A stretch of 64,000 nucleotides of DNA from a virus: positions 31,728-95,727 of IMG/VR virus record IMGVR_UViG_3300016643_000133; one strand, 5' to 3'. The notes beneath the pieces were generated by a model. That model was not told the origin of the DNA. It did no database searches and saw only the letters and a list, made by a program, of their open reading frames with translations. How positions within the stretch are numbered: position 1 is the stretch's first letter; each line of letters opens with the position of its first letter. Shown here one piece after another: positions 2,048-32,149 of this stretch. The position numbers and the translations under genes were made by a program.

Positions 2048-3114
2048 AGATATGTATTCTTGGTGATACCCACTTTGGTGCCCGAGGTGACTCGTTAGAT
2101 TTTCACAAATACTTTGAGCGATTCTATGATGAGGTATTTTTTCCTTATCTGATTGAAAACAAGATTACTGATATATTTCAAATGGGTGATTTATTTGACC
2201 GAAGAAAGTATATCAACTTTAATAGCCTGTATCTGTGCCGCAAATATTTTTTTGAGAAGTGCGAACAATTGAACTTTGATGTTCACACCCTTCTTGGCAA
2301 TCACGATGTAGCTTTCAAAAATACACTAGAGGTAAACTCAACTGGCTTGTTGTTGAATGAATACCACAACATCAAATGTTATAAAGAATTTGAAACAGTA
2401 GAATTTGATGGTGTTGCCGTTGACATTGTGCCTTGGATGTGTGATGAAAATGCTGAAGAAATTTTAGAAAAGATAAAAGAATCTAGTTCTCAAATTGCTT
2501 TTGGTCACTTTGAAATTCGTGGTTTTGAAATGGACAGAGGTAATGTTTCTGAGGTAGGCATTGACAAAGACCTATTAAAGAGTTATGATATCGTTTTGTC
2601 TGGTCACTTTCATCACAAATCATCTGACCACAACATTGTATATGTTGGCACACCTTATGAAATGACATGGTCTGATTACAATGACCCAAAAGGTTTTCAT
2701 ATATTTGATACGAAAACAAGGCAACTAGAGTTTATTCGTAACCCACTTACAATGTTTAACAAGGTAACATACGATGATACCGAACTTGACTTTGATTGGT
2801 GGAAAACATATGATTTTGAATCACTCAAAAATACCTATGTTAAAGTTGTGGTATTAAACAAGCAGAATCCATTTCTGTTTGACCATGTGATAGATAATAT
2901 TTACAAGGCAAGTGTTGCTGACTTGTCTATCGTAGAAGATTTTACCGATGTTCTCATTGATACTGACCAAGACATTGTAGACCAGGCAGAAGATACGATG
3001 ACAATTCTTTCTAAGTATATTGATAACTTGACATTAGATGTGGAATCTGATAAGCTTAAAAACATTATGCGTGAATTGTATGTTGAGGCATTGAACACAG
3101 AAGTGGCTGAATGA
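2044..3114 (+). CDS. gp47: recombination endonuclease subunit (Mre11/SbcD-like)
   Basis: GDTHFG, GDLFD, GNHD, GHFH metallophosphoesterase motifs. Confidence 0.95.
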   Translation: MKICILGDTHFGARGDSLDFHKYFERFYDEVFFPYLIENKITDIFQMGDLFDRRKYINFNSLYLCRKYFFEKCEQLNFDVHTLLGNHDVAFKNTLEVNSTGLLLNEYHNIKCYKEFETVEFDGVAVDIVPWMCDENAEEILEKIKESSSQIAFGHFEIRGFEMDRGNVSEVGIDKDLLKSYDIVLSGHFHHKSSDHNIVYVGTPYEMTWSDYNDPKGFHIFDTKTRQLEFIRNPLTMFNKVTYDDTELDFDWWKTYDFESLKNTYVKVVVLNKQNPFLFDHVIDNIYKASVADLSIVEDFTDVLIDTDQDIVDQAEDTMTILSKYIDNLTLDVESDKLKNIMRELYVEALNTEVAE

Positions 3115-4823
3115 TATTATTTCGTAATTTAAAGTGGAAAAATTTACTAAGCACCGGCAATTATTGGACAGAAGTTAACCTGTCTAGTAATACCAATACT
3201 TTGGTTGTTGGTGAAAATGGTTCTGGTAAAAGCACAATGCTTGATGCGTTGTGTTTTGGTTTATTTGGAAAACCATTTCGTAACATTAATAAACCACAAC
3301 TCGTTAACTCAATCAATACCAAAGATTGTGTGGTTGAAGTTACATTTGATACCAACAATAAGAACTATCGTATTGTTCGTGGCATTAAACCAAACATCTT
3401 TGAAATCTATTGTAACGGCGACCTAATCAATCAAGAAGCTGCAAGCCGTGACTATCAGGAGTTTTTAGAGAAGTTTATTCTCAAACTTAATTACAAGTCA
3501 TTTACTCAGATTGTAATTCTTGGTAGTGCCTCATTTACGCCATTCATGCAGTTGTCGGCATCTGACCGAAGAGCTATCATTGAGGATTTGTTAGACATTC
3601 AAATCTTTTCTACAATGAACTCTTTAGTAAAAGACAAACTATCCAATAACAAAGATTTACTTTCACATAAGAAACATGAGATAGAACTTGCACAACAGAA
3701 ATACGATATGCAGAAGAAGCATATTGAAGAACTCAAACAAAACAATGAAGATAAGGTGAACGAATATGTTACGGAAATTTCATGTCATAATGATACCGTA
3801 TCCTCACTATTGGCAAATGTTACAATCCTTGCATCCGAAGTCCAGTCGCTGCAAGAAATTGTGGCAACTAAAATTGAAACAGAGGCTAAGGTCAAGAAGA
3901 TTACAAAAATTGAATCTCAAATTGAAACAAACTTATCCAAATTTCAAAAAGATATCAGTTTCTTTCAATCGCATGACAATTGTCCAACCTGTAGGCAAAC
4001 CATTGCCATGGAATTTAAAGAAGAAGAACTTGGCAATCTCAATACCAAAGTTATGGAGTGCAAACACGGTCTCACTCAACTAGAACAAAAACTAAATGAA
4101 GAACAAGAAAAGTTGAATGACATTAATGAGAAGCAAAAACTCATTAATAAAAAGCAAGTTGAGATTGCAACAAACAATACCACAATCAACGAAACAAATA
4201 AACTGATTGCTCGTTTAAGTAAATTGGTAGATGAGTTGAAAGAATCTAAAGTAGTATCAGAAAAGGAAGAACAAGAATTAAGTAACATAAATGTATCATT
4301 AAAAGAGTTAAAGCAACATTTATGTGACCTTATAGATGAACGGACATATTATGAAGTCGCAAGCAATTTGCTAAAAGATACCGGCATCAAAACAAAGATT
4401 GTGAAACAGTATTTGCCAATCATCAATAAATTGGTGAATAAGTATTTGGCATCACTAGATTTCTTTGTCAACTTTAACCTTGATGAATCATTTAAAGAAA
4501 CAATCAAATCACGCCATCGTGACGAATTTACCTATAACAATTTTAGTGAAGGTGAGAAACAAAGAATTGACATGGCATTGATGCTGACTTGGCGTGCTGT
4601 TGCTAAGTTAAAGAATTCGTCAAATACCAATCTATTGATACTTGATGAAACATTTGATTCTAGCCTTGATGCCAATGGCACAGAAGAATTGATGAAGATT
4701 CTACATATGCTAGAAGGTGTAAACTTGTTTGTTATCTCACACAAAGGAGATATACTGCAAGACAAATTTGCAAATGTGATTCGTTTTGCCAAAGAAAAGA
4801 ATTTTTCAAGGATAATAAAATGA
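3111..4823 (+). CDS. gp46: recombination ATPase subunit (Rad50/SbcC-like)
   Basis: Walker A GENGSGKS, CPTC zinc hook, FSEGE signature, LILDE Walker B. Confidence 0.95.
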   Translation: MILFRNLKWKNLLSTGNYWTEVNLSSNTNTLVVGENGSGKSTMLDALCFGLFGKPFRNINKPQLVNSINTKDCVVEVTFDTNNKNYRIVRGIKPNIFEIYCNGDLINQEAASRDYQEFLEKFILKLNYKSFTQIVILGSASFTPFMQLSASDRRAIIEDLLDIQIFSTMNSLVKDKLSNNKDLLSHKKHEIELAQQKYDMQKKHIEELKQNNEDKVNEYVTEISCHNDTVSSLLANVTILASEVQSLQEIVATKIETEAKVKKITKIESQIETNLSKFQKDISFFQSHDNCPTCRQTIAMEFKEEELGNLNTKVMECKHGLTQLEQKLNEEQEKLNDINEKQKLINKKQVEIATNNTTINETNKLIARLSKLVDELKESKVVSEKEEQELSNINVSLKELKQHLCDLIDERTYYEVASNLLKDTGIKTKIVKQYLPIINKLVNKYLASLDFFVNFNLDESFKETIKSRHRDEFTYNNFSEGEKQRIDMALMLTWRAVAKLKNSSNTNLLILDETFDSSLDANGTEELMKILHMLEGVNLFVISHKGDILQDKFANVIRFAKEKNFSRIIK

Positions 4824-5002
4824 CCAAAGACCAAATTCGTATTACTGATGGGTATGAAAGAACAGTAGATATTTTACCTACAAATGATGGTCAATATCAG
4901 GCTATAATGTTTGAAGCATCTACTGACTATCATCAAAATGCATGGTTTGCTACACTAGAAGAAGTTAAAAAATTTGCTGAAAGTTGGGTGAATAGAAAAT
5001 GA
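4820..5002 (+). CDS. hypothetical protein
   Basis: ATGA overlaps with both neighbours. Confidence 0.6.
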   Translation: MTKDQIRITDGYERTVDILPTNDGQYQAIMFEASTDYHQNAWFATLEEVKKFAESWVNRK

Positions 5003-5571
5003 GCGATATCTTAACCATTGACACCGGTGCTGGTGTAACATATAAACAAACACTAGACCCTTTGCCATTGTTTGACGAAAATCATCCGATGTTAAAGATG
5101 GTAATACCTGATTATAAACAAGCACTACCAAACCCAATTATGACAAATCTGGTAAAGCGTTTGCATATGACCAGAAAATTATATGGTGGTATTGGTCTTT
5201 CTGCCAATCAATGTGGTGTATTTGAAAGAGTGTTTGTAATTGGTACTGACCACTTTGATTTGGCTTGTATCAACCCAAAAGTAATTGAAATGTCGGCAGA
5301 TGTAATGAAAAGTGATGAGGGTTGCCTCTCTTACCCAGGCCTGTATGTTAAAATAGACAGACCAAATTGGGTTCAGGTTGAGTTTACTGATGAAAATGGA
5401 CAAACAAAACAAACTCGCCTAGAAGGTCTAAGTGCAAGATGTTTTTTACATGAACTTGACCATATGAACGGCAAAAAGTTTGTTGAGTATGTAGGCCCTG
5501 TTGCATTACAAATGGCAAGAAAAAAACAGGAAAAAATAATGAAGAAGGTTATTCGTAATAGAAAGAAATAA
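4999..5571 (+). CDS. def: peptide deformylase
   Basis: GIGLSANQCG, EGCLS, HELDH motifs. Confidence 0.93.
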   Translation: MSDILTIDTGAGVTYKQTLDPLPLFDENHPMLKMVIPDYKQALPNPIMTNLVKRLHMTRKLYGGIGLSANQCGVFERVFVIGTDHFDLACINPKVIEMSADVMKSDEGCLSYPGLYVKIDRPNWVQVEFTDENGQTKQTRLEGLSARCFLHELDHMNGKKFVEYVGPVALQMARKKQEKIMKKVIRNRKK

Positions 5572-6848
5572 TGGCTTATAGTTTTGACCCTAAAGATGAT
5601 GTAGAAACACAATGGCAGAAATGGCAAGAACAAACGCCAATTAAGCCATTGTCTTTCACCGAAGATGAACTGCGTGATAGAACCATCAAAGAACTAGGCT
5701 ATGTTTCACAAATGGATGTGAAAGAATATACCTTGTTTCAAAAGTGGTGTGAAGTGCAAGAAAAATACCCATCTATTGTAACACAAACATTATGGGGTGA
5801 AGAATGTCTGTTAGAAGATGAGGGTCAACGCCGGGCCATACAAGAAATCAAAAACAATTTTTGGATACCAAACGACCCTGATGCATACTTGGCATTAGAA
5901 CCTGAGCTTGTATATGCCAATAAACAAGATAATTTACCTGAATTGTGGAATTGTATTCGCACATTTTCTTCTACGATGAAGAATAATTCCAACATTGGTC
6001 GCAATCTAAACTTTATTGTCAAAGATAAACCAACACAAAAATATCTTGGTGTTATTTGTATTTCATCTGACTTTTTAGATTTGACACCAAGAGATAACTT
6101 TATTGGTTGGAGTAGAGAAAAGAAAACACAAGGCGGTATGATTAACCATACTGCGATTGGTTCTACAATTGTGCCATTACAACCTCTTGGTTTTAATTAT
6201 GTTGGCGGTAAATTGTTGGCTTTGCTTTGTTTAGCCACACCCATACAAGAACTATGGGAAAAACTATATGGTGATAAGTTGGTAAGTATTACAACAACAT
6301 CACTTTATGGTAAAACAAAAGCTGGTGGGTTGTCCCAATACGATAATCTGGACTACTGGCAGCCAATGGGCTTTACCTCAGGTTCAGTATCGTTTGAACC
6401 ATTGCAAGATACTCGTTACATGATTCGTGAGTGGTTGAAAGTAAACCATACACGAAAGTATTTTGAATGGTATGTAGCAAAGAAACCAAGTGGTCAACCG
6501 CATAAGCGTGACCACAAAAATCGTTCATTGTCTTTTGCTTATGCTAAGTTATCTGTGCCAAAAGAATTGATTCGTTCTGAACACGCAAGAGGCATTTACT
6601 TTGCACCTTTGTATGATAAGACCTGCGAATTTCTCCGCGGCGATAATGATGGCAAAGATATGAAAAAGTTGTTTAATACTGATGTAGAAAGCCTAAGTAA
6701 TATATGGAAAGAGAAACACGCCAAACCAAGAATTAAACAGTTGGTTAAAAAAGGCAGAGTTTCTTCTGACACTCTTTTCTATGATGACCTTACCGTGTTA
6801 TCATGGGAAGAAACAAAGGCTAAATATCTTATACAGGTTGGCAGATAA
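5571..6848 (+). CDS. DUF4338/DruA-like protein, putative GNAT-related fold
   Basis: IGRNLNFIV, IVPLQPLGFNYVGGKLLALL, TTTSLYG, SQYD...W..MG.TSG; paralog of 27226..28341. Confidence 0.6.
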   Translation: MAYSFDPKDDVETQWQKWQEQTPIKPLSFTEDELRDRTIKELGYVSQMDVKEYTLFQKWCEVQEKYPSIVTQTLWGEECLLEDEGQRRAIQEIKNNFWIPNDPDAYLALEPELVYANKQDNLPELWNCIRTFSSTMKNNSNIGRNLNFIVKDKPTQKYLGVICISSDFLDLTPRDNFIGWSREKKTQGGMINHTAIGSTIVPLQPLGFNYVGGKLLALLCLATPIQELWEKLYGDKLVSITTTSLYGKTKAGGLSQYDNLDYWQPMGFTSGSVSFEPLQDTRYMIREWLKVNHTRKYFEWYVAKKPSGQPHKRDHKNRSLSFAYAKLSVPKELIRSEHARGIYFAPLYDKTCEFLRGDNDGKDMKKLFNTDVESLSNIWKEKHAKPRIKQLVKKGRVSSDTLFYDDLTVLSWEETKAKYLIQVGR

Positions 6849-7275
6849 AACCTTTATGATTTGATTGTTTTCCTTTAGAAACATTTATCATACCACTCTG
6901 AAAAAGGCCATTCTCTTTACAGAATTTTGTTAAATTTTTTATTAATAATTTTGTTCCGTCAGGATAAGTAATTAACCATTCTTTAGAAAGTGTGTTTGCT
7001 ATTTTTTGTTTTTGTGATTCATAATTAGGTATGCCTTTGTTCCAAGGTATTTTTCCTTTATTTGCTTCACTCTGTTTCTTTTTTGTTTCTTCGGATAGTT
7101 TTTTACCTAAGTTTATTTCTCGCAACAACTGTTTAGTAGAATCATCAAGTTTTTCACCTGGAATTCCACCATAAGAATGAAAAGCATCTTTAGGTATTTT
7201 TAATGGATTATTTTTACACCATTCACGAAGTTCAATAATAAATGGGTCATTTTTATTTCTCAAATAAATATCCAT
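6829..7275 (-). CDS. NUMOD3-repeat DNA-binding protein, homing-endonuclease derived, no visible nuclease domain
   Basis: LSEETKKKQSEANKGKIPWNKG repeats; C-terminal NLTKFCKENGL...HKGF module. Confidence 0.7.
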   Translation of the reverse strand: MDIYLRNKNDPFIIELREWCKNNPLKIPKDAFHSYGGIPGEKLDDSTKQLLREINLGKKLSEETKKKQSEANKGKIPWNKGIPNYESQKQKIANTLSKEWLITYPDGTKLLIKNLTKFCKENGLFQSGMINVSKGKQSNHKGFICQPV

Positions 7276-7341
7276 GCTGGCATAGTTCCTTTATGTTAGA
7301 GTGGGTGAGAACGGCAATTCTGCGACCCACACCTATTTATG
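7273..7341 (-). promoter_or_regulatory. late promoter (CATAAATA) plus conserved structured leader, copy 1
   Basis: Aligns with 60115-60184 with compensatory base changes in three stems. Confidence 0.7.
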
Positions 7342-7352
7342 CCTTAAAACTA

Positions 7353-7382
7353 TTGACTTTTAGCATAAGTATTTGATATAAT
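7353..7382 (+). promoter_or_regulatory. sigma70 promoter for the tRNA-like RNA
   Basis: TTGACT-18 nt-TATAAT with extended -10 TG. Confidence 0.7.
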
Positions 7383-7392
7383 ATCCTTTCAT

Positions 7393-7455
7393 GCGGTGAG
7401 TCCGAGACAACCTACCCCCGTAGGCAGACAGGTTTAACTCCTGTTAACCGCTCCA
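7393..7455 (+). ncRNA. miniature tRNA-Gly-like RNA (63 nt) with encoded CCA
   Basis: Acceptor GCGGTGA/TAACCGC + T + CCA; T arm ACAGG-TTTAACT-CCTGT; CCTAC-CCCC-GTAGG arm; reduced D region. Confidence 0.75.
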
Positions 7456-7528
7456 TTCATGTAAGTAAGTGGTCACTAACATAGACCTGGTATGCAATAG
7501 AAGGTGTTGTTTTTATGCAACAACCCTA

Positions 7529-7557
7529 TTGACAAACCGGCCAAATGGTGATATAAT
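7529..7557 (+). promoter_or_regulatory. consensus sigma70 early promoter
   Basis: TTGACA-17 nt-TATAAT with extended -10 TG. Confidence 0.8.
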
Positions 7558-7569
7558 GGTTAAATAATA

Positions 7570-9945
7570 ATGAGTAAGGGTATTTCCATGTCGTTTACTG
7601 CCGAACAAAAATCACAATTAGCAAAATTACTGGCAACCGAGAATCTCACGGTTCAACACCAGAAAATTTCTACTGCACGGTTTGACACCAAAAACCGTAT
7701 TCTATACCTTCCAATTTGGCAAAATATGACAGGTTTCATTTACGACCTGTTGGTCGGCCATGAAGTAGGTCATGCTCTCTATACACCAGCTGAAGGTTGG
7801 CATGATGCGGTAATGGACAATGACAAGAACAAAAACTACAAAAACTTTTTGAATGTTGTTGAAGATGCTCGTATTGAGAAAAAAGTCAAACGCAAATATC
7901 CTGGTTTAAATACCGCATTTCGTCTTGCATACCAAGAACTCAACAATCGTGATTTCTTTGGCATTAAGAACCGTGATGTGAATGAACTGCCATTTATTGA
8001 CCGCCTAAATCTTTTCAGTAAATCGCAATGGCAAGCAACATGGATTAAATTCTCGGCTAACGAAGGATTGTTGGTCAAAGAAGTGCAAGCTGCTGAAACT
8101 TGGGCCGATGTTTTGCGTATTACTGAAAAAGTTTATCAGTATTCAAAAGATGAACAGCATGAAATGGCTCTTCAACAATTTGATGAAATGATGGCTGAAG
8201 GTGCTGATTCGGATGATGGTTATGATATGTCTGATTATGGCAATGATGACTATGAAGAAGGTGATGACGGTGATGATTATGACGGAGAGGGTGATGAAAC
8301 CAATGAGATTGAAAACGGCGATTCTCAATCACAACACAACAAAGCAACCGATGATGAATTTGATTCTAATTCAGAAGAATTAGGCGATAACATTACACAT
8401 GACAAAGAATCACACCCTGGCGATAAAGACCAGTTTAACCCTACTTGCAAAACAGATGAAAACTATCGCCGCAATGAAACACAATTGCTTGACGATAAAT
8501 GCAAAGAGTTTGTTTATGTTGACATTCCTAAACCAATCCTAAAAAACATTATTACTCCTGCCAAACGGGTGCAAGAGTTGATGAGTAAATCATGGAAAAA
8601 ATTTATTGCTGAATCGTTCATTGAACCAAACAAACCAGTAGAAGTTATGAATGAATTCAAACGCCGTAATGAGCGTTATGTTGGTCTGCTTGCTAAAGAA
8701 TTTGAAATGCGTAAGGCTGCAAAAGCTTTCAGCAAGTCAAAACTGTCCGATACTGGCGATATTGATATCAGTAAACTTTCTTCTTATAAGTTTGACGATA
8801 ACATTTTCCGCAAAGTAATGATGACACCAAAAGGCAAAAGTCATGGCCTTGTATTGTTACTTGACCGCTCTGGTTCTATGTCTAGAAATATGTCTGGTTC
8901 TATTGAGCAGATTCTCGTATTGTCAATGTTCTGCCGCAAAGTGAATATTCCGTTTGTTGTGTATGGCTTTACTGAATCAGCGACAGTCAAAACCATTGAC
9001 CTTGGTCTTGATGTAGATGACCAACAGACACATCAATTTAGCCGTGATTATTCTGGTACAGACAAATACAATTGTTTTACTCAAAATCTTGGTGAAATGA
9101 ATTTTAATAATGTTCATTTGCGTGAGTACCTGAATTCTAAAATGTCAAACGCTGAATTTACGGTTGCTCTGAAAAATATGTGTATGCTAATGGAATCTTA
9201 CAAAGATGGTAATTATCGTTTATATCCAAGGCCAGAATCTGAGCAACTAAACAATACACCAATGACACAAGCTATTGTTGCAACAGCTGAAGTTATGAAA
9301 GATTTTAAACGCATCAACAATTTGGATATTTGTAGTTTGGTCATTGTGCATGACGGTGATGCTGACTCTCTCAACAGTTATTGGGTTGAAAAAGAACGAC
9401 AAAATTACAAAACGGGCTTGACTGAAATGACGAAGGTCGGAGAATGGTATTCTAGTGACCGAGTTTATGTCATGCGTGACCGTCAAAACAAATTTGAAAT
9501 TAAAATTGTTAATGTAGTAGAAGATACTTCAACACAAGTTCTCAAATGGTTCAACAAAGTGACTGGTGCTCGTGTGTTTGGTTTCTTTATTGTTGCTGGT
9601 CGTGGTGAAGCCAAATATGCGTTATCTAACCGATATGTGAATGAAGAAGGTAAAAATATGTGGCAAATTAAAGCTGAGATTGGTTATGATGCTGCAATGG
9701 AATACCAGAAAAAACTTTTGAAGAATTTTAAATCTGAAAAATATGCTGCAAGCAAAATCTCTGGTTATGAGAATTTCTTTTTCATTCATGGCGGCGAAGA
9801 ACTTACCACCGATGATGAAGATGGTATTGAAGTAGAAGGTAAATTTACTGCGAAGAAGTTGGCAACGGCATTTGCCAAATACAATAAAAAACGGGCAGTA
9901 AATCGGGTATTAGTATCTCGGTTTATCCAAGGTATTGCCGCTTAA
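7570..9945 (+). CDS. CobT-like protein: N-terminal HExxH domain, acidic linker, VWA domain (start may be 7588)
   Basis: HEVGH, NVVEDARIE, D/E-rich linker, MIDAS DRSGSMS and HDGD. Confidence 0.8.
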   Translation: MSKGISMSFTAEQKSQLAKLLATENLTVQHQKISTARFDTKNRILYLPIWQNMTGFIYDLLVGHEVGHALYTPAEGWHDAVMDNDKNKNYKNFLNVVEDARIEKKVKRKYPGLNTAFRLAYQELNNRDFFGIKNRDVNELPFIDRLNLFSKSQWQATWIKFSANEGLLVKEVQAAETWADVLRITEKVYQYSKDEQHEMALQQFDEMMAEGADSDDGYDMSDYGNDDYEEGDDGDDYDGEGDETNEIENGDSQSQHNKATDDEFDSNSEELGDNITHDKESHPGDKDQFNPTCKTDENYRRNETQLLDDKCKEFVYVDIPKPILKNIITPAKRVQELMSKSWKKFIAESFIEPNKPVEVMNEFKRRNERYVGLLAKEFEMRKAAKAFSKSKLSDTGDIDISKLSSYKFDDNIFRKVMMTPKGKSHGLVLLLDRSGSMSRNMSGSIEQILVLSMFCRKVNIPFVVYGFTESATVKTIDLGLDVDDQQTHQFSRDYSGTDKYNCFTQNLGEMNFNNVHLREYLNSKMSNAEFTVALKNMCMLMESYKDGNYRLYPRPESEQLNNTPMTQAIVATAEVMKDFKRINNLDICSLVIVHDGDADSLNSYWVEKERQNYKTGLTEMTKVGEWYSSDRVYVMRDRQNKFEIKIVNVVEDTSTQVLKWFNKVTGARVFGFFIVAGRGEAKYALSNRYVNEEGKNMWQIKAEIGYDAAMEYQKKLLKNFKSEKYAASKISGYENFFFIHGGEELTTDDEDGIEVEGKFTAKKLATAFAKYNKKRAVNRVLVSRFIQGIAA

Positions 9946-25872: not shown

Positions 25873-27229
25873 GGCTTTCACAAGAAAAGTAATTCCTTTT
25901 ATTCGTTCTGATTATTTTGGTGAAGATGCCGAAAGAATCATTTTCAAAGAAGTTTTTGAATTTACAAACAAATACAAGAATCTTCCGTCACACGAAGCCC
26001 TTGTAATCAACCTTACCGAAAGTAAATCGCTGACCGAACCACAAGTAAGGTCGGCGATTGAACTTCTCAACGAAATCAAAGAATCAAAAGATGAAACTGT
26101 AGAGTTGTCTTGGATTACTGAGCAAACAGAAAAGTTTTGCCAAGATAAAGCCATCTACAATGCCATCATGGAATCTGTGCATATCCTTGATGACAAAAAC
26201 TCCAAAAAATCAAAAGGCGAAATACCAAAACTTCTTGCTGATGCTCTTGGTGTTTCATTTGACAGTAATGTTGGTCACGATTACATGAATGACTTTGATG
26301 ACCGATATGACTTCTATCACCGTGTTGAAAGTCGTATTCGTTTTGATTTGGATATTTTCAACAAGATTACTAAAGGCGGTCTGCCAGTTAAAACTTTGAA
26401 TATTGCTCTTGCAGGCACAGGTGTTGGTAAATCATTGTTTATGTGTCACATGGCAGGCTCTTGTTTGTCACAAGGCCATAATGTGTTGTATATTACACTA
26501 GAAATGGCCGAAGAAAAGATTGCTGAGCGTATTGATGCGAACTTACTCAATGCTGATTTCAATGAACTTCATACGATGAGTAAATCTGATTATGAGCGCA
26601 AGTTTGAAGCCCTCAGAACCAAAACTCATGGTAAACTTATCATCAAAGAATATCCAACTGCCAGCGCTTCTGCACTACATTTCCGTGCTTTGCTAAACGA
26701 ACTTGCTCTGAAGAAGAATTTCAGACCAGATATTATCTTTATTGATTATCTAAACATCTGTTCATCAGCACGAATCAAACCAGGCGGCAATGTCAACAGT
26801 TATACTTACATTAAATCTATTGCTGAAGAATTGCGTGGTCTTGCCGTTGAAAACAACCTACCTATTGTTTCTGCGACACAAACAACCCGAAGCGGTTTCA
26901 CCAATTCAGACCCTGGCTTGGAAGATACAAGTGAATCGTTTGGTCTGCCTGCAACGGCCGATTTTATGTTTGCTTTGATTTCAAATGAAGAACTAGAAGG
27001 TCTGAATCAGATTCTTGTCAAACAATTAAAGAATCGTTATAGTGACCCAAATGCCTTCAAACGATTTGTAGTTGGTGTTGACAGGTCAAAAATGCGACTA
27101 TATGATGCAGAAGATTCAGCACAACAGGGCATTACTGATTCTGGTCAAGATGAAGATACAGGCCCAATCAATACATTTGGCACAAGAGAAAGCAAATTTA
27201 ATCGTAATTTTGATGGTCTAAAAGTATGA
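25826..27229 (+). CDS. gp41: replicative DNA helicase
   Basis: AGTGVGKS, YITLEMAEE, IDYLNIC, SATQTTR, SESFGLPATAD. Confidence 0.96.
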   Translation: MNRLEQIILKNLIYNEAFTRKVIPFIRSDYFGEDAERIIFKEVFEFTNKYKNLPSHEALVINLTESKSLTEPQVRSAIELLNEIKESKDETVELSWITEQTEKFCQDKAIYNAIMESVHILDDKNSKKSKGEIPKLLADALGVSFDSNVGHDYMNDFDDRYDFYHRVESRIRFDLDIFNKITKGGLPVKTLNIALAGTGVGKSLFMCHMAGSCLSQGHNVLYITLEMAEEKIAERIDANLLNADFNELHTMSKSDYERKFEALRTKTHGKLIIKEYPTASASALHFRALLNELALKKNFRPDIIFIDYLNICSSARIKPGGNVNSYTYIKSIAEELRGLAVENNLPIVSATQTTRSGFTNSDPGLEDTSESFGLPATADFMFALISNEELEGLNQILVKQLKNRYSDPNAFKRFVVGVDRSKMRLYDAEDSAQQGITDSGQDEDTGPINTFGTRESKFNRNFDGLKV

Positions 27230-28341
27230 ATTTAAATTATGACCAGGCCTTGCATTGTGCCAAGGTTTTTGAAGATTATTTTGGTGATTTCAACCGAATA
27301 GATGAGTATATGCGAGAGCAGAAATTAAACTCTCTCGCAGAAATGCCATTTGCTTTGCCAGGTTGTGGACCAGAAGCAGATTTGTTTGATGATTTTACCA
27401 TGAACCCACAAGATATGGAGTTTGAGGTTGTTGAACTAGAATCGGCTAGATGGCAATTATATCTGGATATTATTTCATCACACAATAATCTATCATCACC
27501 TGGCCGTAATGTTCGCTTGGCTGTAATGGAAAAGAAAACTCAGAAATGGGTTGGTTTCATTCGTCTTGGTTCTCCAACAATTATGATGAAGCCAAGAAAT
27601 GAACTTCTTGGTTGTGTAATGACAAATGAACTAGAAACAACCAAGGCTTTCAATCGTGCTGCTGCGATGGGTTTTGTAATTGTACCAGCGCAACCTTTTG
27701 GTTTCAATTATCTTGGTGGTAAATTGCTGGCAGGTATCTGTTGTTCACATGAAGTGCGTGAGATATTGAACAAGAAGTATGGTATGAATACTTGCTTGTT
27801 TGAAACCACCAGTTTGTATGGCACCACAAAGTCCGTATCTCAATATGATGGTATGAAACCTTATCTAAGATTTGGTGGTGTAACTGAATCTGATTTTTTA
27901 CCAATGATGCATGGCAAACCATATGAAGATTTAAAAGAATATGTTGAAGGTATTGTTGGTGAATTTGTTCCTGCTGATGCTTCTAGTCGCAAACTAAAGA
28001 TTAGCAATACGATTATTGCGATGACGAAGGCTGCATTAAAGAACCATAAGAGTGATTATGACACATTTATGGCCACCATCCAGAAAGCCAAAGGTTTGAC
28101 TGAAAGAAAACGATACTACTATTCAAACTATGGTTTTTCTAACTTCAAAGATGTGGTGATTGGAAAGTCAGATAAACTTGTACCAGACAAGGAAAACTAT
28201 GATAAATTTCACATGGAGAATATCATAGAATGGTGGAAAAAGAAGGCTTGTAGTAGATTTACAACACTTCAGACAGAAAACCGACTGAGAACAGAGATAG
28301 AGGTGTGGACAGGCGATAAAGAGATTGACATTATCCGTTAA
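27226..28341 (+). CDS. second DUF4338/DruA-like protein
   Basis: PGRNVRLAV, IVPAQPFGFNYLGGKLLA, FETTSLYG, SQYDG; paralog of 5571..6848. Confidence 0.6.
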   Translation: MNLNYDQALHCAKVFEDYFGDFNRIDEYMREQKLNSLAEMPFALPGCGPEADLFDDFTMNPQDMEFEVVELESARWQLYLDIISSHNNLSSPGRNVRLAVMEKKTQKWVGFIRLGSPTIMMKPRNELLGCVMTNELETTKAFNRAAAMGFVIVPAQPFGFNYLGGKLLAGICCSHEVREILNKKYGMNTCLFETTSLYGTTKSVSQYDGMKPYLRFGGVTESDFLPMMHGKPYEDLKEYVEGIVGEFVPADASSRKLKISNTIIAMTKAALKNHKSDYDTFMATIQKAKGLTERKRYYYSNYGFSNFKDVVIGKSDKLVPDKENYDKFHMENIIEWWKKKACSRFTTLQTENRLRTEIEVWTGDKEIDIIR

Positions 28342-31312: not shown

Positions 31313-32149
31313 ATGAAAGATTTGATAATCGGCACAAGTACCAACTATGATTGGTCCAAATTAAAATATTGGGTCAACTCAATCAACAAATCAGGATTCC
31401 AAGGTGATAAGGTCCTGGTTCTTCTCAACTGCGATAGAGACACCATAAAAAAAGTCCAAGAAGCAGGGTTCATTGTCGTTGGCACCAAACAAGATGACAA
31501 TGGAAATTTAGTATACCAATCAAGTATTCCTGTTCATGTAGAGCGCTTTCTACATATGCACGCTTTCTTAGAAAAAAGAGAGTATCGCTATGTCATCACT
31601 ACAGATGTAAAAGATGTGGTGTTTCAGCGTAACCCAATTGACTATATTGAAAAAACACTCAATGATGATAAAGAGTTGATGTTTGCTTCAGAATCTTTGC
31701 GTTACTTTGATGAACCATGGGGAAATCAAAACCTAATGGACACATATGGCAATTACATCTATGACCATTATAAAGGTAATGAAATTTATAATGTTGGCGT
31801 TTTGGCTGGCACAGGTCAAGCGATGAAAGAATTGTTTATCAATATCTTTGCTGCAGCTATTGGCCGACCAATTCCTATTTGTGACCAATCAACCTTTAAC
31901 TTTATGATTCAAAGCACATGGTTTAGAAAAACATCCGTGTATTTGAGGTCTGAAGATGCTTGGGCTGCACAACTTGGCACAACAGCGGATCCATCTAAAA
32001 TAGAACAGTTTAGACCTTTATTGGTAGAACCTGAACCAAAAATGGAAAATGGTGAAATCACAACATCTGCCAATATACCCTTTACAATTGTGCATCAGTA
32101 TGATAGAATTCCTTATTGGAAAAATGTGATAGAGGCAAAATATGGCTAA
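31313..32149 (+). CDS. glycosyltransferase-like protein
   Basis: TTDVKDVVFQ DxD-like, NVGVLAG, DQSTFN, IVHQYDR. Confidence 0.65.
   Translation: MKDLIIGTSTNYDWSKLKYWVNSINKSGFQGDKVLVLLNCDRDTIKKVQEAGFIVVGTKQDDNGNLVYQSSIPVHVERFLHMHAFLEKREYRYVITTDVKDVVFQRNPIDYIEKTLNDDKELMFASESLRYFDEPWGNQNLMDTYGNYIYDHYKGNEIYNVGVLAGTGQAMKELFINIFAAAIGRPIPICDQSTFNFMIQSTWFRKTSVYLRSEDAWAAQLGTTADPSKIEQFRPLLVEPEPKMENGEITTSANIPFTIVHQYDRIPYWKNVIEAKYG

Follow-up and report, generated by a model that had tools for sequence, protein, structure and literature searches.

A candidate private glycyl carrier: a miniature tRNA-Gly-like RNA linked to a DruA-family GNAT gene in T4-like phages

Why does a phage keep a 63-nucleotide (nt) gene for a non-decoding, tRNA-Gly-like RNA beside a gene of the DruA (formerly DUF4338) family? 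The question is raised by a 64,000-nt stretch of viral DNA (IMG/VR record IMGVR_UViG_3300016643_000133, positions 31,728 to 95,727; hereafter the window), which is part of a 95.7-kb contig; the phage is T4-like, uncultured and of freshwater origin. Its genome is 54% complete by the CheckV estimate, and in culture its closest relatives are two SAR11 myophages of the family Kyanoviridae, HTVC008M and Mosig. We find that the RNA is a real, non-decoding derivative of tRNA-Gly, selected for the identity set of glycyl-tRNA synthetase (GlyRS) and for its CCA end, that RNA and DruA gene are genomically linked in this lineage, and that the DruA protein, according to a confident structural model, has the fold of the GNAT superfamily. 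We tentatively read the RNA as a private carrier of glycyl groups, used most likely by the DruA GNAT and plausibly for the modification of DNA, a reading to which we give somewhat less than an even chance.

The RNA folds into a miniature cloverleaf (-20.7 kcal/mol, z -2.9), and no shuffled sequence folded as well; its parts are listed in Table 1. Comparison with 23 distinct variants of the same type, which we call class A, reveals that 91.5% of cells are paired, compared with at most 52% in slid-partner controls, and that cells with a double change number 33 as against 9.5 in shuffles. Compensatory changes are found in the acceptor, anticodon-like and T stems. Since the reduced D-arm hairpin GUCCGAGAC is invariant, covariation speaks neither for nor against its pairing. 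In relatives, the conserved sequence runs from G1 to the terminal CCA, outside which variation is free. In fact, phages with only 78-79% DruA identity have the same RNA to the last letter (100% identity), and the RNA is thus more conserved than the adjacent gene.

The known determinants of GlyRS are G1-C72, C2-G71, G3-C70, U73, CCA, C35 and C36 (PMC7826273). All those of the acceptor end are present in the window RNA, as the sequence-only reading of this DNA had claimed; they are invariant in the 23 class-A variants and kept in the further classes B-D described below. A CC that would correspond to C35 and C36, a feature of which the sequence-only reading made no use, occurs in the anticodon-like loop of every RNA of the family. 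In class A this loop reads CCC(C/A), with rare variants that have 6-7 nt loops with ACC or UCC.

The earlier claim that such an RNA cannot be a normal decoding tRNA is upheld as well. A 4-nt loop cannot present an anticodon, ARAGORN and the Rfam model RF00005 (E<=10) do not detect the 63-nt RNA, and an Rfam scan of 6800-7700 at E<=10 returned chance matches only. In a complete 214-kb relative, a cluster at 9-17 kb comprises 28 canonical tRNAs, Gly-UCC and Gly-GCC among them, and the mini RNA adjoins DruA at ~143 kb, apart from that cluster; because canonical tRNA-Gly genes coexist with it, the mini RNA is not this phage's decoding tRNA-Gly. The acceptor end GCGG...CCGCUCCA is common to the mini RNA and the canonical tRNA-Gly of T4-like phages, but the mini RNA differs from the latter in being missed by tRNA models, non-decoding and located away from the tRNA cluster. 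That the RNA might be a decaying tRNA-Gly pseudogene, or an odd tRNA that still decodes, is barely credible to us. Its ancestry in tRNA-Gly would suit either idea, as would the 7-nt loops, U33 and ACC or UCC anticodons kept by rare variants and by genes of HTVC008M and Mosig. However, decay is at odds with a conserved promoter, sharp boundaries, compensatory changes and full identity of the RNA at 78% DruA identity, and decoding with the 4-nt loop and with the canonical tRNA-Gly genes of the complete relative. A scan of one genome each from 185,579 bacterial and archaeal species did not find the class-A pattern, and the literature library searched yielded no paper on these phage RNAs or on a link between DruA/DUF4338 and tRNA.

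Related loci without a BLAST match to the RNA hold other RNAs at the same site. Class B RNAs (67-68 nt) have the loop ACCC or UCCC and the T loop AGCAAAG, class C RNAs have UGC in the T loop, and class D RNAs (69-70 nt) have a 7-nt loop, UGUCCAA or UGACCAA, with G33 and the T loop UGCGAAU. Classes A-D share GCGG...CCGC-U-CCA and the loop CC (CCCC, CCCA, ACC or UCC) on widely different bodies. Class D also reveals strong covariation in both stems, with 98-100% of cells paired. The D-region and T-loop types always change together, GUCCGAGAC occurring with UUUAAC and UAG-containing loops with xGC, which would fit a retained contact between D loop and T loop, with common descent as the alternative explanation. 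Some phages carry two family RNAs in tandem, and tandem copies are frequent. In some phages a class-D RNA lies 5 nt upstream of a canonical tRNA-Gly(UCC), which RF00005 scores at 69 bits; both RF00005 and ARAGORN miss the class-D RNA beside it. This arrangement suggests an origin by duplication.

We note a few further RNA genes and matches in these phages. At a second locus (L218:6438-6586; L221:9568-9637), the class-D RNA has its own promoter and lies near hsp20 and a deoxycytidine monophosphate (dCMP) deaminase gene. The only tRNA of HTVC008M (KC465899.1, 91140-91213, plus strand), a Gly(ACC) whose T loop AGCGUUA is unusual, has no feature in the record. Mosig (MT647606.1, 7779-7852, minus strand) has a Gly(ACC)-like gene with a non-canonical T loop, which RF00005 misses and which is annotated as the hypothetical protein coding sequence Mosig_000011. 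A weak RF00005 match at 93210-93268 of Mosig lies within coding sequence and is probably due to chance, as is a poorly paired 57-nt match, GCGG...CCGCTCCA, in the phage of locus L199.

In a pattern scan of viral contigs that was independent of the protein, every complete class-A RNA with upstream sequence (72/72) follows a DruA gene, at DruA identities down to 59%, and the 38 chance matches of the pattern include none with DruA. The 9 larger genomes examined that carry a family RNA all encode DruA as well (9/9), and no RNA-only genome was seen. In ~56/80 related viral loci the RNA starts 25-50 nt past the DruA stop codon with no open reading frame (ORF) between. The window differs in that a cassette with a NUMOD3 ORF separates the two genes. 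This cassette is an insertion polymorphism, because relatives and contigs assembled from DNA runs are without it: in contigs from two independent freshwater DNA runs, 6827 is joined to 7377 via 27 other letters. The view of the sequence-only reading that the RNA would directly follow the DruA gene once the cassette is removed is therefore matched by actual DNA.

A TATAAT -10 box lies ~8 nt 5' of the RNA in every relative, and the cassette contributes a new -35 box; the promoter in the window matches 11/12 consensus positions. In a metatranscriptome run, the DruA gene and 7407-7668 are covered by short contigs; such contigs cannot show transcription, ends or strand and are no evidence of expression.

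The ORF upstream of the RNA matches the Pfam family PF14236 (DruA) with E 2.7e-20 and 73.2 bits (curated cut-off 27) and the PADLOC DruA models with E 4.9e-18, and an exhaustive search retrieved 902 homologs at E<=1e-3. A search for related loci that started from one distant homolog, P0029, yielded no viral locus. The DruA of type I Druantia defence systems belongs to the same family by hidden Markov model (PF14236/DUF4338); its partners DruB, DruC, DruD and DruE are not among the neighbours of the phage gene in the window. An AlphaFold2 (AF2) model built on an alignment of 51 homologs has a predicted local distance difference test score (pLDDT) of 94 and a predicted template modelling score (pTM) of 0.91.

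The leading Foldseek matches of this model in the PDB are all GNATs, though weak. With VIA-align, the top solved structure is phage Mu Mom (8bv8; Z 9.7, 174/202 residues aligned, root-mean-square deviation (rmsd) 4.1), followed by dozens of acetyl-coenzyme A (CoA)-dependent GNATs at Z 8-9; this search ran all against representatives, and by its own rule Mom and the GNAT rows after it are tied. FemA (Z 7.9, rmsd 5.8 over 194 residues) does not stand out among the GNATs. In BFVD the best matches are DUF4338 relatives, three giant-virus proteins among them, and Mom is the first named match outside the DUF4338 family (rank 10, E 7e-3). The giant-virus relatives come from Faunusvirus, Yasminevirus and Dasosvirus, and two of them are parts of ~1200-amino-acid (aa) proteins. 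That the protein is GNAT-like, as proposed from sequence, is thus borne out by the model, and DUF4338 has been classed as a GNAT domain by others too (PMC10853773). A winged-helix DNA-binding N-terminus was also considered: residues 1-110 folded alone gave pLDDT 75, pTM 0.39 and a best structural match of Z 3.5, which leaves this idea unsupported.

The model places the segment QPLGFNYVGGKLL between a strand (E194-202) and a helix (H206-219) assigned by DSSP, at the site of GNAT motif A. Across the 51 homologs, Q204, P205, G207, G212, G213, K214 and L215 are invariant or nearly so, and R174, T242-S244, Y257 and R340 are conserved as well. The motif-A-like segment named in the sequence-only reading therefore has the right structural position and near-invariance, but it fits the motif incompletely: QPLGFN and then GGK stand at the place of motif A, and the final position deviates from Q/R-x-x-G-x-G/A.

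Two known systems have a bearing on how such an RNA and such a protein might work together, and both are named in the sequence-only reading. The first is that of the staphylococcal non-proteogenic tRNA-Gly species, which are charged normally by GlyRS, bind EF-Tu poorly and are preferred by Fem transferases; the species NP1-3 of Staphylococcus aureus and S. epidermidis are the donors for FmhB, FemA and FemB (PMC7826273). Like the phage RNA, they keep the GlyRS identity set and coexist with canonical tRNA-Gly. Their T stems contain the weak EF-Tu pairs A49-U65, U50-A64 and A51-U63, and their T loops contain UGC or UGU in place of UUC (PMC7826273). The T stem of the window RNA, made of A49-U65, C50-G64, A51-U63 and two G-C pairs, has two of these three weak pairs and differs at C50-G64, and UGC in the T loop recurs in phage classes C and D, whereas class A has UUUAACU. 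Unlike the staphylococcal RNAs, the phage RNA is phage-encoded and far more reduced (63 nt, 4-nt loop, collapsed D arm), and its candidate partner is a DUF4338 GNAT instead of a Fem-family transferase.

The second system is Mom of phage Mu (PF25680), like DruA a phage protein with the GNAT fold. Work of 2026 established that this enzyme, whose catalytic residues are R111, S124 and R151, takes glycine from Gly-tRNAGly and attaches it to N6 of adenine in double-stranded DNA; any of the host isoacceptors will serve, and the amino acid and the 3' end seem to be the main points of recognition (PMC13219725). The Gly-tRNA dependence of Mom given in the sequence-only reading is thus confirmed. Unlike the arrangement considered here, Mom relies on the tRNA-Gly of its host, without a private RNA, and DruA is twice as long as Mom, with extra N- and C-terminal parts. 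A third comparison concerns TacT-type GNAT toxins, which, as cited in PMC13219725, acetylate Gly-tRNAGly and work on its 3' end. These are small proteins of toxin-antitoxin pairs for which the tRNA is the target, whereas the phage RNA would be a donor, and they are not among the top structural matches listed for the DruA model.

The RNA gene is descended from a tRNA-Gly; it has lost the 7-nt anticodon loop, the normal D arm and the T-psi-C loop and retains the features needed by GlyRS and by an enzyme that reads the 3' end. The locus could work in several steps: (I) the promoter of the RNA gene would drive its transcription, and trimming would expose the CCA end that the gene encodes, (II) host GlyRS would charge the RNA with glycine, (III) EF-Tu and the ribosome would handle it poorly, which would create a private pool of activated glycine outside translation, and (IV) the neighbouring DruA GNAT, possibly with the paralog described below, would transfer the glycyl group to a target. 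Charging, exclusion from translation, the donor of the enzyme and its target are all inferred; the target may be a DNA base, by analogy with Mom, and the modification may protect phage DNA. That the complete chain operates as a self-contained phage glycylation system, in which a private RNA charged by host GlyRS feeds the DruA GNAT and the substrate is phage DNA or another macromolecule, we consider rather unlikely.

The user of the glycyl group need not be the neighbouring enzyme. The window encodes a second DruA/DUF4338 paralog directly after a DnaB-like helicase gene and near uvsX, which is 37% identical to the first over the GNAT core and has the same conserved motifs, including the QPLGFNYVGGKLL segment. 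The RNA might accordingly donate glycine to this paralog 2, to another phage protein or to a host aminoacyl-tRNA transferase. The presence of paralog 2 in the replication module, the varying position of the RNA relative to paralog 1 and the tandem paralog pairs of other phages agree with such a donor role, but no RNA of this kind adjoins paralog 2 and no further aminoacyl-tRNA-dependent enzyme was identified in the window, and we judge this alternative improbable. Tandem pairs of DruA paralogs were seen at loci L200 and L201.

Several observations weigh against the assignment of the RNA to DruA as a glycyl carrier. At the level of the protein, the Z score of Mom exceeds that of many CoA-using GNATs by 1 or less, and the Q-x-x-G segment of DruA resembles, in sequence, the CoA-binding motif A; the location of QPLGFNYVGGKLL fits a CoA-type donor site as well as the alternatives. 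The Mom family PF25680 gave no match to the DruA protein at E<=0.1, hmmsearch with a DruA profile against PDB sequences did not retrieve Mom, and hhalign of DruA with Mom alone and with a 27-member Mom alignment returned a probability below 2%. Given this lack of sequence and profile similarity, the DruA protein is Mom-shaped yet outside the Mom family, and the resemblance to Mom that had been suspected in a Y..W..MG.T segment finds no support in profile comparison.

The genomic data add to these reservations. Among class-D instances with enough flank, 36/100 follow DruA and 64/100 do not; in the non-adjacent cases DruA lies 7-9 kb upstream where visible, and the RNA stands behind an unrelated gene, close to hsp20 and gp45. 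The tRNA-Gly(ACC) of HTVC008M is 3.9 kb from DruA, and the Gly(ACC)-like gene of Mosig ~6.5 kb. DruA homologs with 42-49% identity lack an RNA next to them. Adjacency to DruA thus holds throughout class A but not for many class-D RNAs, and RNA and DruA may both be mere core genes of this phage clade. In addition, its own promoter makes the RNA gene a transcription unit separate from DruA, and the 4-nt loop may be an obstacle to the presentation of C35 and C36 to GlyRS.

A last point of this kind comes from a pair of closely related loci. The class-A RNA of L008 (4781-4844) and the class-B RNA of L009 (4808-4874) have bodies that are only 60% alike. Their flanks show 97% overall identity, which rises to 99-100% in the 100 nt next to the RNA on either side. 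The bodies are exchanged precisely between GCGGUGAGU and CCGCUCCA, and the DruA genes that carry the different bodies are 96-97% identical. Because RNA bodies differ beside near-identical DruA genes, the enzyme does not co-adapt with the body, which behaves as a swappable cassette. The swap would be compatible with recognition of nothing but the acceptor end by the enzyme, which has been proposed for Mom, and equally with no interaction at all. Exchange breakpoints at the conserved acceptor ends, together with the homing-endonuclease remnant inserted directly beside the element in the window, could also suggest a role in cis for the tRNA-like element, which would mark a hotspot of recombination or homing or signal RNA processing, and would not work as a free RNA. 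We regard this as very improbable, since a dedicated promoter and an encoded CCA end indicate a discrete RNA product and a role at the DNA level does not explain why the Gly identity set is conserved.

The same exchange bears on the main alternative, which we hold to be unlikely and nevertheless take seriously, namely that RNA and DruA are unrelated neighbours. The RNA would then act by itself, as a decoy or sponge that occupies some host factor able to recognise tRNA-Gly or Gly-tRNA-Gly; TacT-type GNAT toxins, tRNA nucleases, GlyRS and the stringent-response machinery are candidates. DruA would be an acyl-CoA-dependent acyltransferase with a separate target. A precise body swap between near-identical phages suggests diversifying or arms-race selection, and the RNA's own promoter, the occurrence of family RNAs at no fewer than three (at least 3) genomic positions and the frequent tandem copies are in keeping with this. 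GNAT toxins that target Gly-tRNAGly are known, as cited in PMC13219725, and the motif-A-like Q-x-x-G segment of DruA and its lack of a sequence link to Mom also agree with this alternative. Against the decoy stand the class-A RNAs, all 72 of which adjoin DruA, and the presence of DruA in all examined RNA-bearing genomes. No such host factor was identified, and a decoy for an anticodon nuclease should keep its anticodon loop, which is here the part least conserved in length.

The private glycyl donor envisaged in the sequence-only reading is thus partly supported: the GNAT fold and a real non-decoding tRNA-Gly derivative speak for it, whereas DruA is not of the Mom family by sequence, its pairing with the RNA is not strict and the RNA has its own promoter. 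If the glycyl-carrier reading is true, this phage would be the first virus known to have its own non-translating aminoacyl carrier, and the concept of the staphylococcal non-proteogenic tRNA-Gly would extend to phages. A first testable biochemical function would also be at hand for the large DUF4338/DruA family of 902 homologs, which includes a defence-system component and giant-virus proteins. Should the self-contained glycylation system exist, DUF4338/DruA would represent a second, independently evolved class of aminoacyl-tRNA-dependent GNAT, and one might suspect that charged tRNA is also used by the bacterial DruA in type I Druantia. The system is small (one RNA, one enzyme and GlyRS) and amenable to direct testing. 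Regardless of function, the RNA family has value for annotation: its members occur widely among T4-like phages of freshwater and the sea, escape tRNA finders, and are mis-annotated or unannotated in the cultured SAR11 phages Mosig and HTVC008M.

Table 1. Features of the window, in window coordinates
Feature	Position	Strand	Basis or remark
gp46-like ATPase gene	3111-4823		
Peptide deformylase gene	4999-5571		
DruA/DUF4338-family gene, paralog 1 (425 aa)	5571-6848	+	PF14236, PADLOC
GNAT-fold catalytic domain, residues ~105-369	5883-6677	+	Structural searches with AF2 model
Motif-A-like segment QPLGFNYVGGKLL, residues 204-216, beta4/alpha3 junction	6180-6218	+	DSSP of model
Inserted cassette, missing in relatives	6828-7376	none	DNA-run contigs, related loci
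NUMOD3 ORF (148 aa), homing-endonuclease remnant	6829-7275	-	Pfam NUMOD3, E 8.9e-7
Sigma-70-type promoter of RNA gene, TTGACT-18-TATAAT, TG extension	7353-7382	+	
tRNA-Gly-like RNA, class A, 63 nt	7393-7455	+	Fold, covariation, conservation boundaries
Acceptor stem with G6/A mismatch; discriminator U; CCA	7393-7399 with 7445-7451; 7452; 7453-7455	+	
Reduced D-arm hairpin GUCCGAGAC	7400-7408	+	Invariant in 23 variants
Anticodon-arm remnant, 5-base-pair (bp) stem, 4-nt loop CCCC (7416-7419)	7411-7424	+	Three compensatory pairs
T arm, 5-bp stem and 7-nt loop UUUAACU	7428-7444	+	100% paired, two covarying pairs, loop invariant
Small conserved hairpin between RNA gene and next promoter	7505-7525	+	
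Promoter of downstream peptidase-like gene	7529-7557	+	12/12 consensus positions
Peptidase-like gene	7570-9945		phrog_459 peptidase, E 2e-173
Second DruA/DUF4338 paralog (371 aa)	27226-28341	+	PF14236, E 2.4e-10; phrog_19197, E 1e-134, full length

The DruA-like gene lies in the replication/recombination region of a T4-like phage, where one small ORF separates the gp46-like ATPase gene from the peptide deformylase gene. The NUMOD3 ORF overlaps the region of the DruA stop codon by 20 nt in antisense. A Pfam search of this ORF detected no nuclease domain, and PHROG homing-endonuclease families match it through their C-terminal, DNA-binding parts only.

In the complete 214-kb relative, ARAGORN calls two tRNAs of the 28-tRNA cluster with CUA and UUA anticodons, of the amber and ochre suppressor types, at 1488-1562 and 6633-6706 of locus L212 (G003:C1:9000-17500), a hint that this phage may read through or recode stop codons. 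Downstream of the RNA gene of the window, the stem of the small hairpin is preserved in relatives despite sequence changes. The hairpin is without a T tract and was not called as a T-tract terminator; it could be a terminator, a processing site or an operator.

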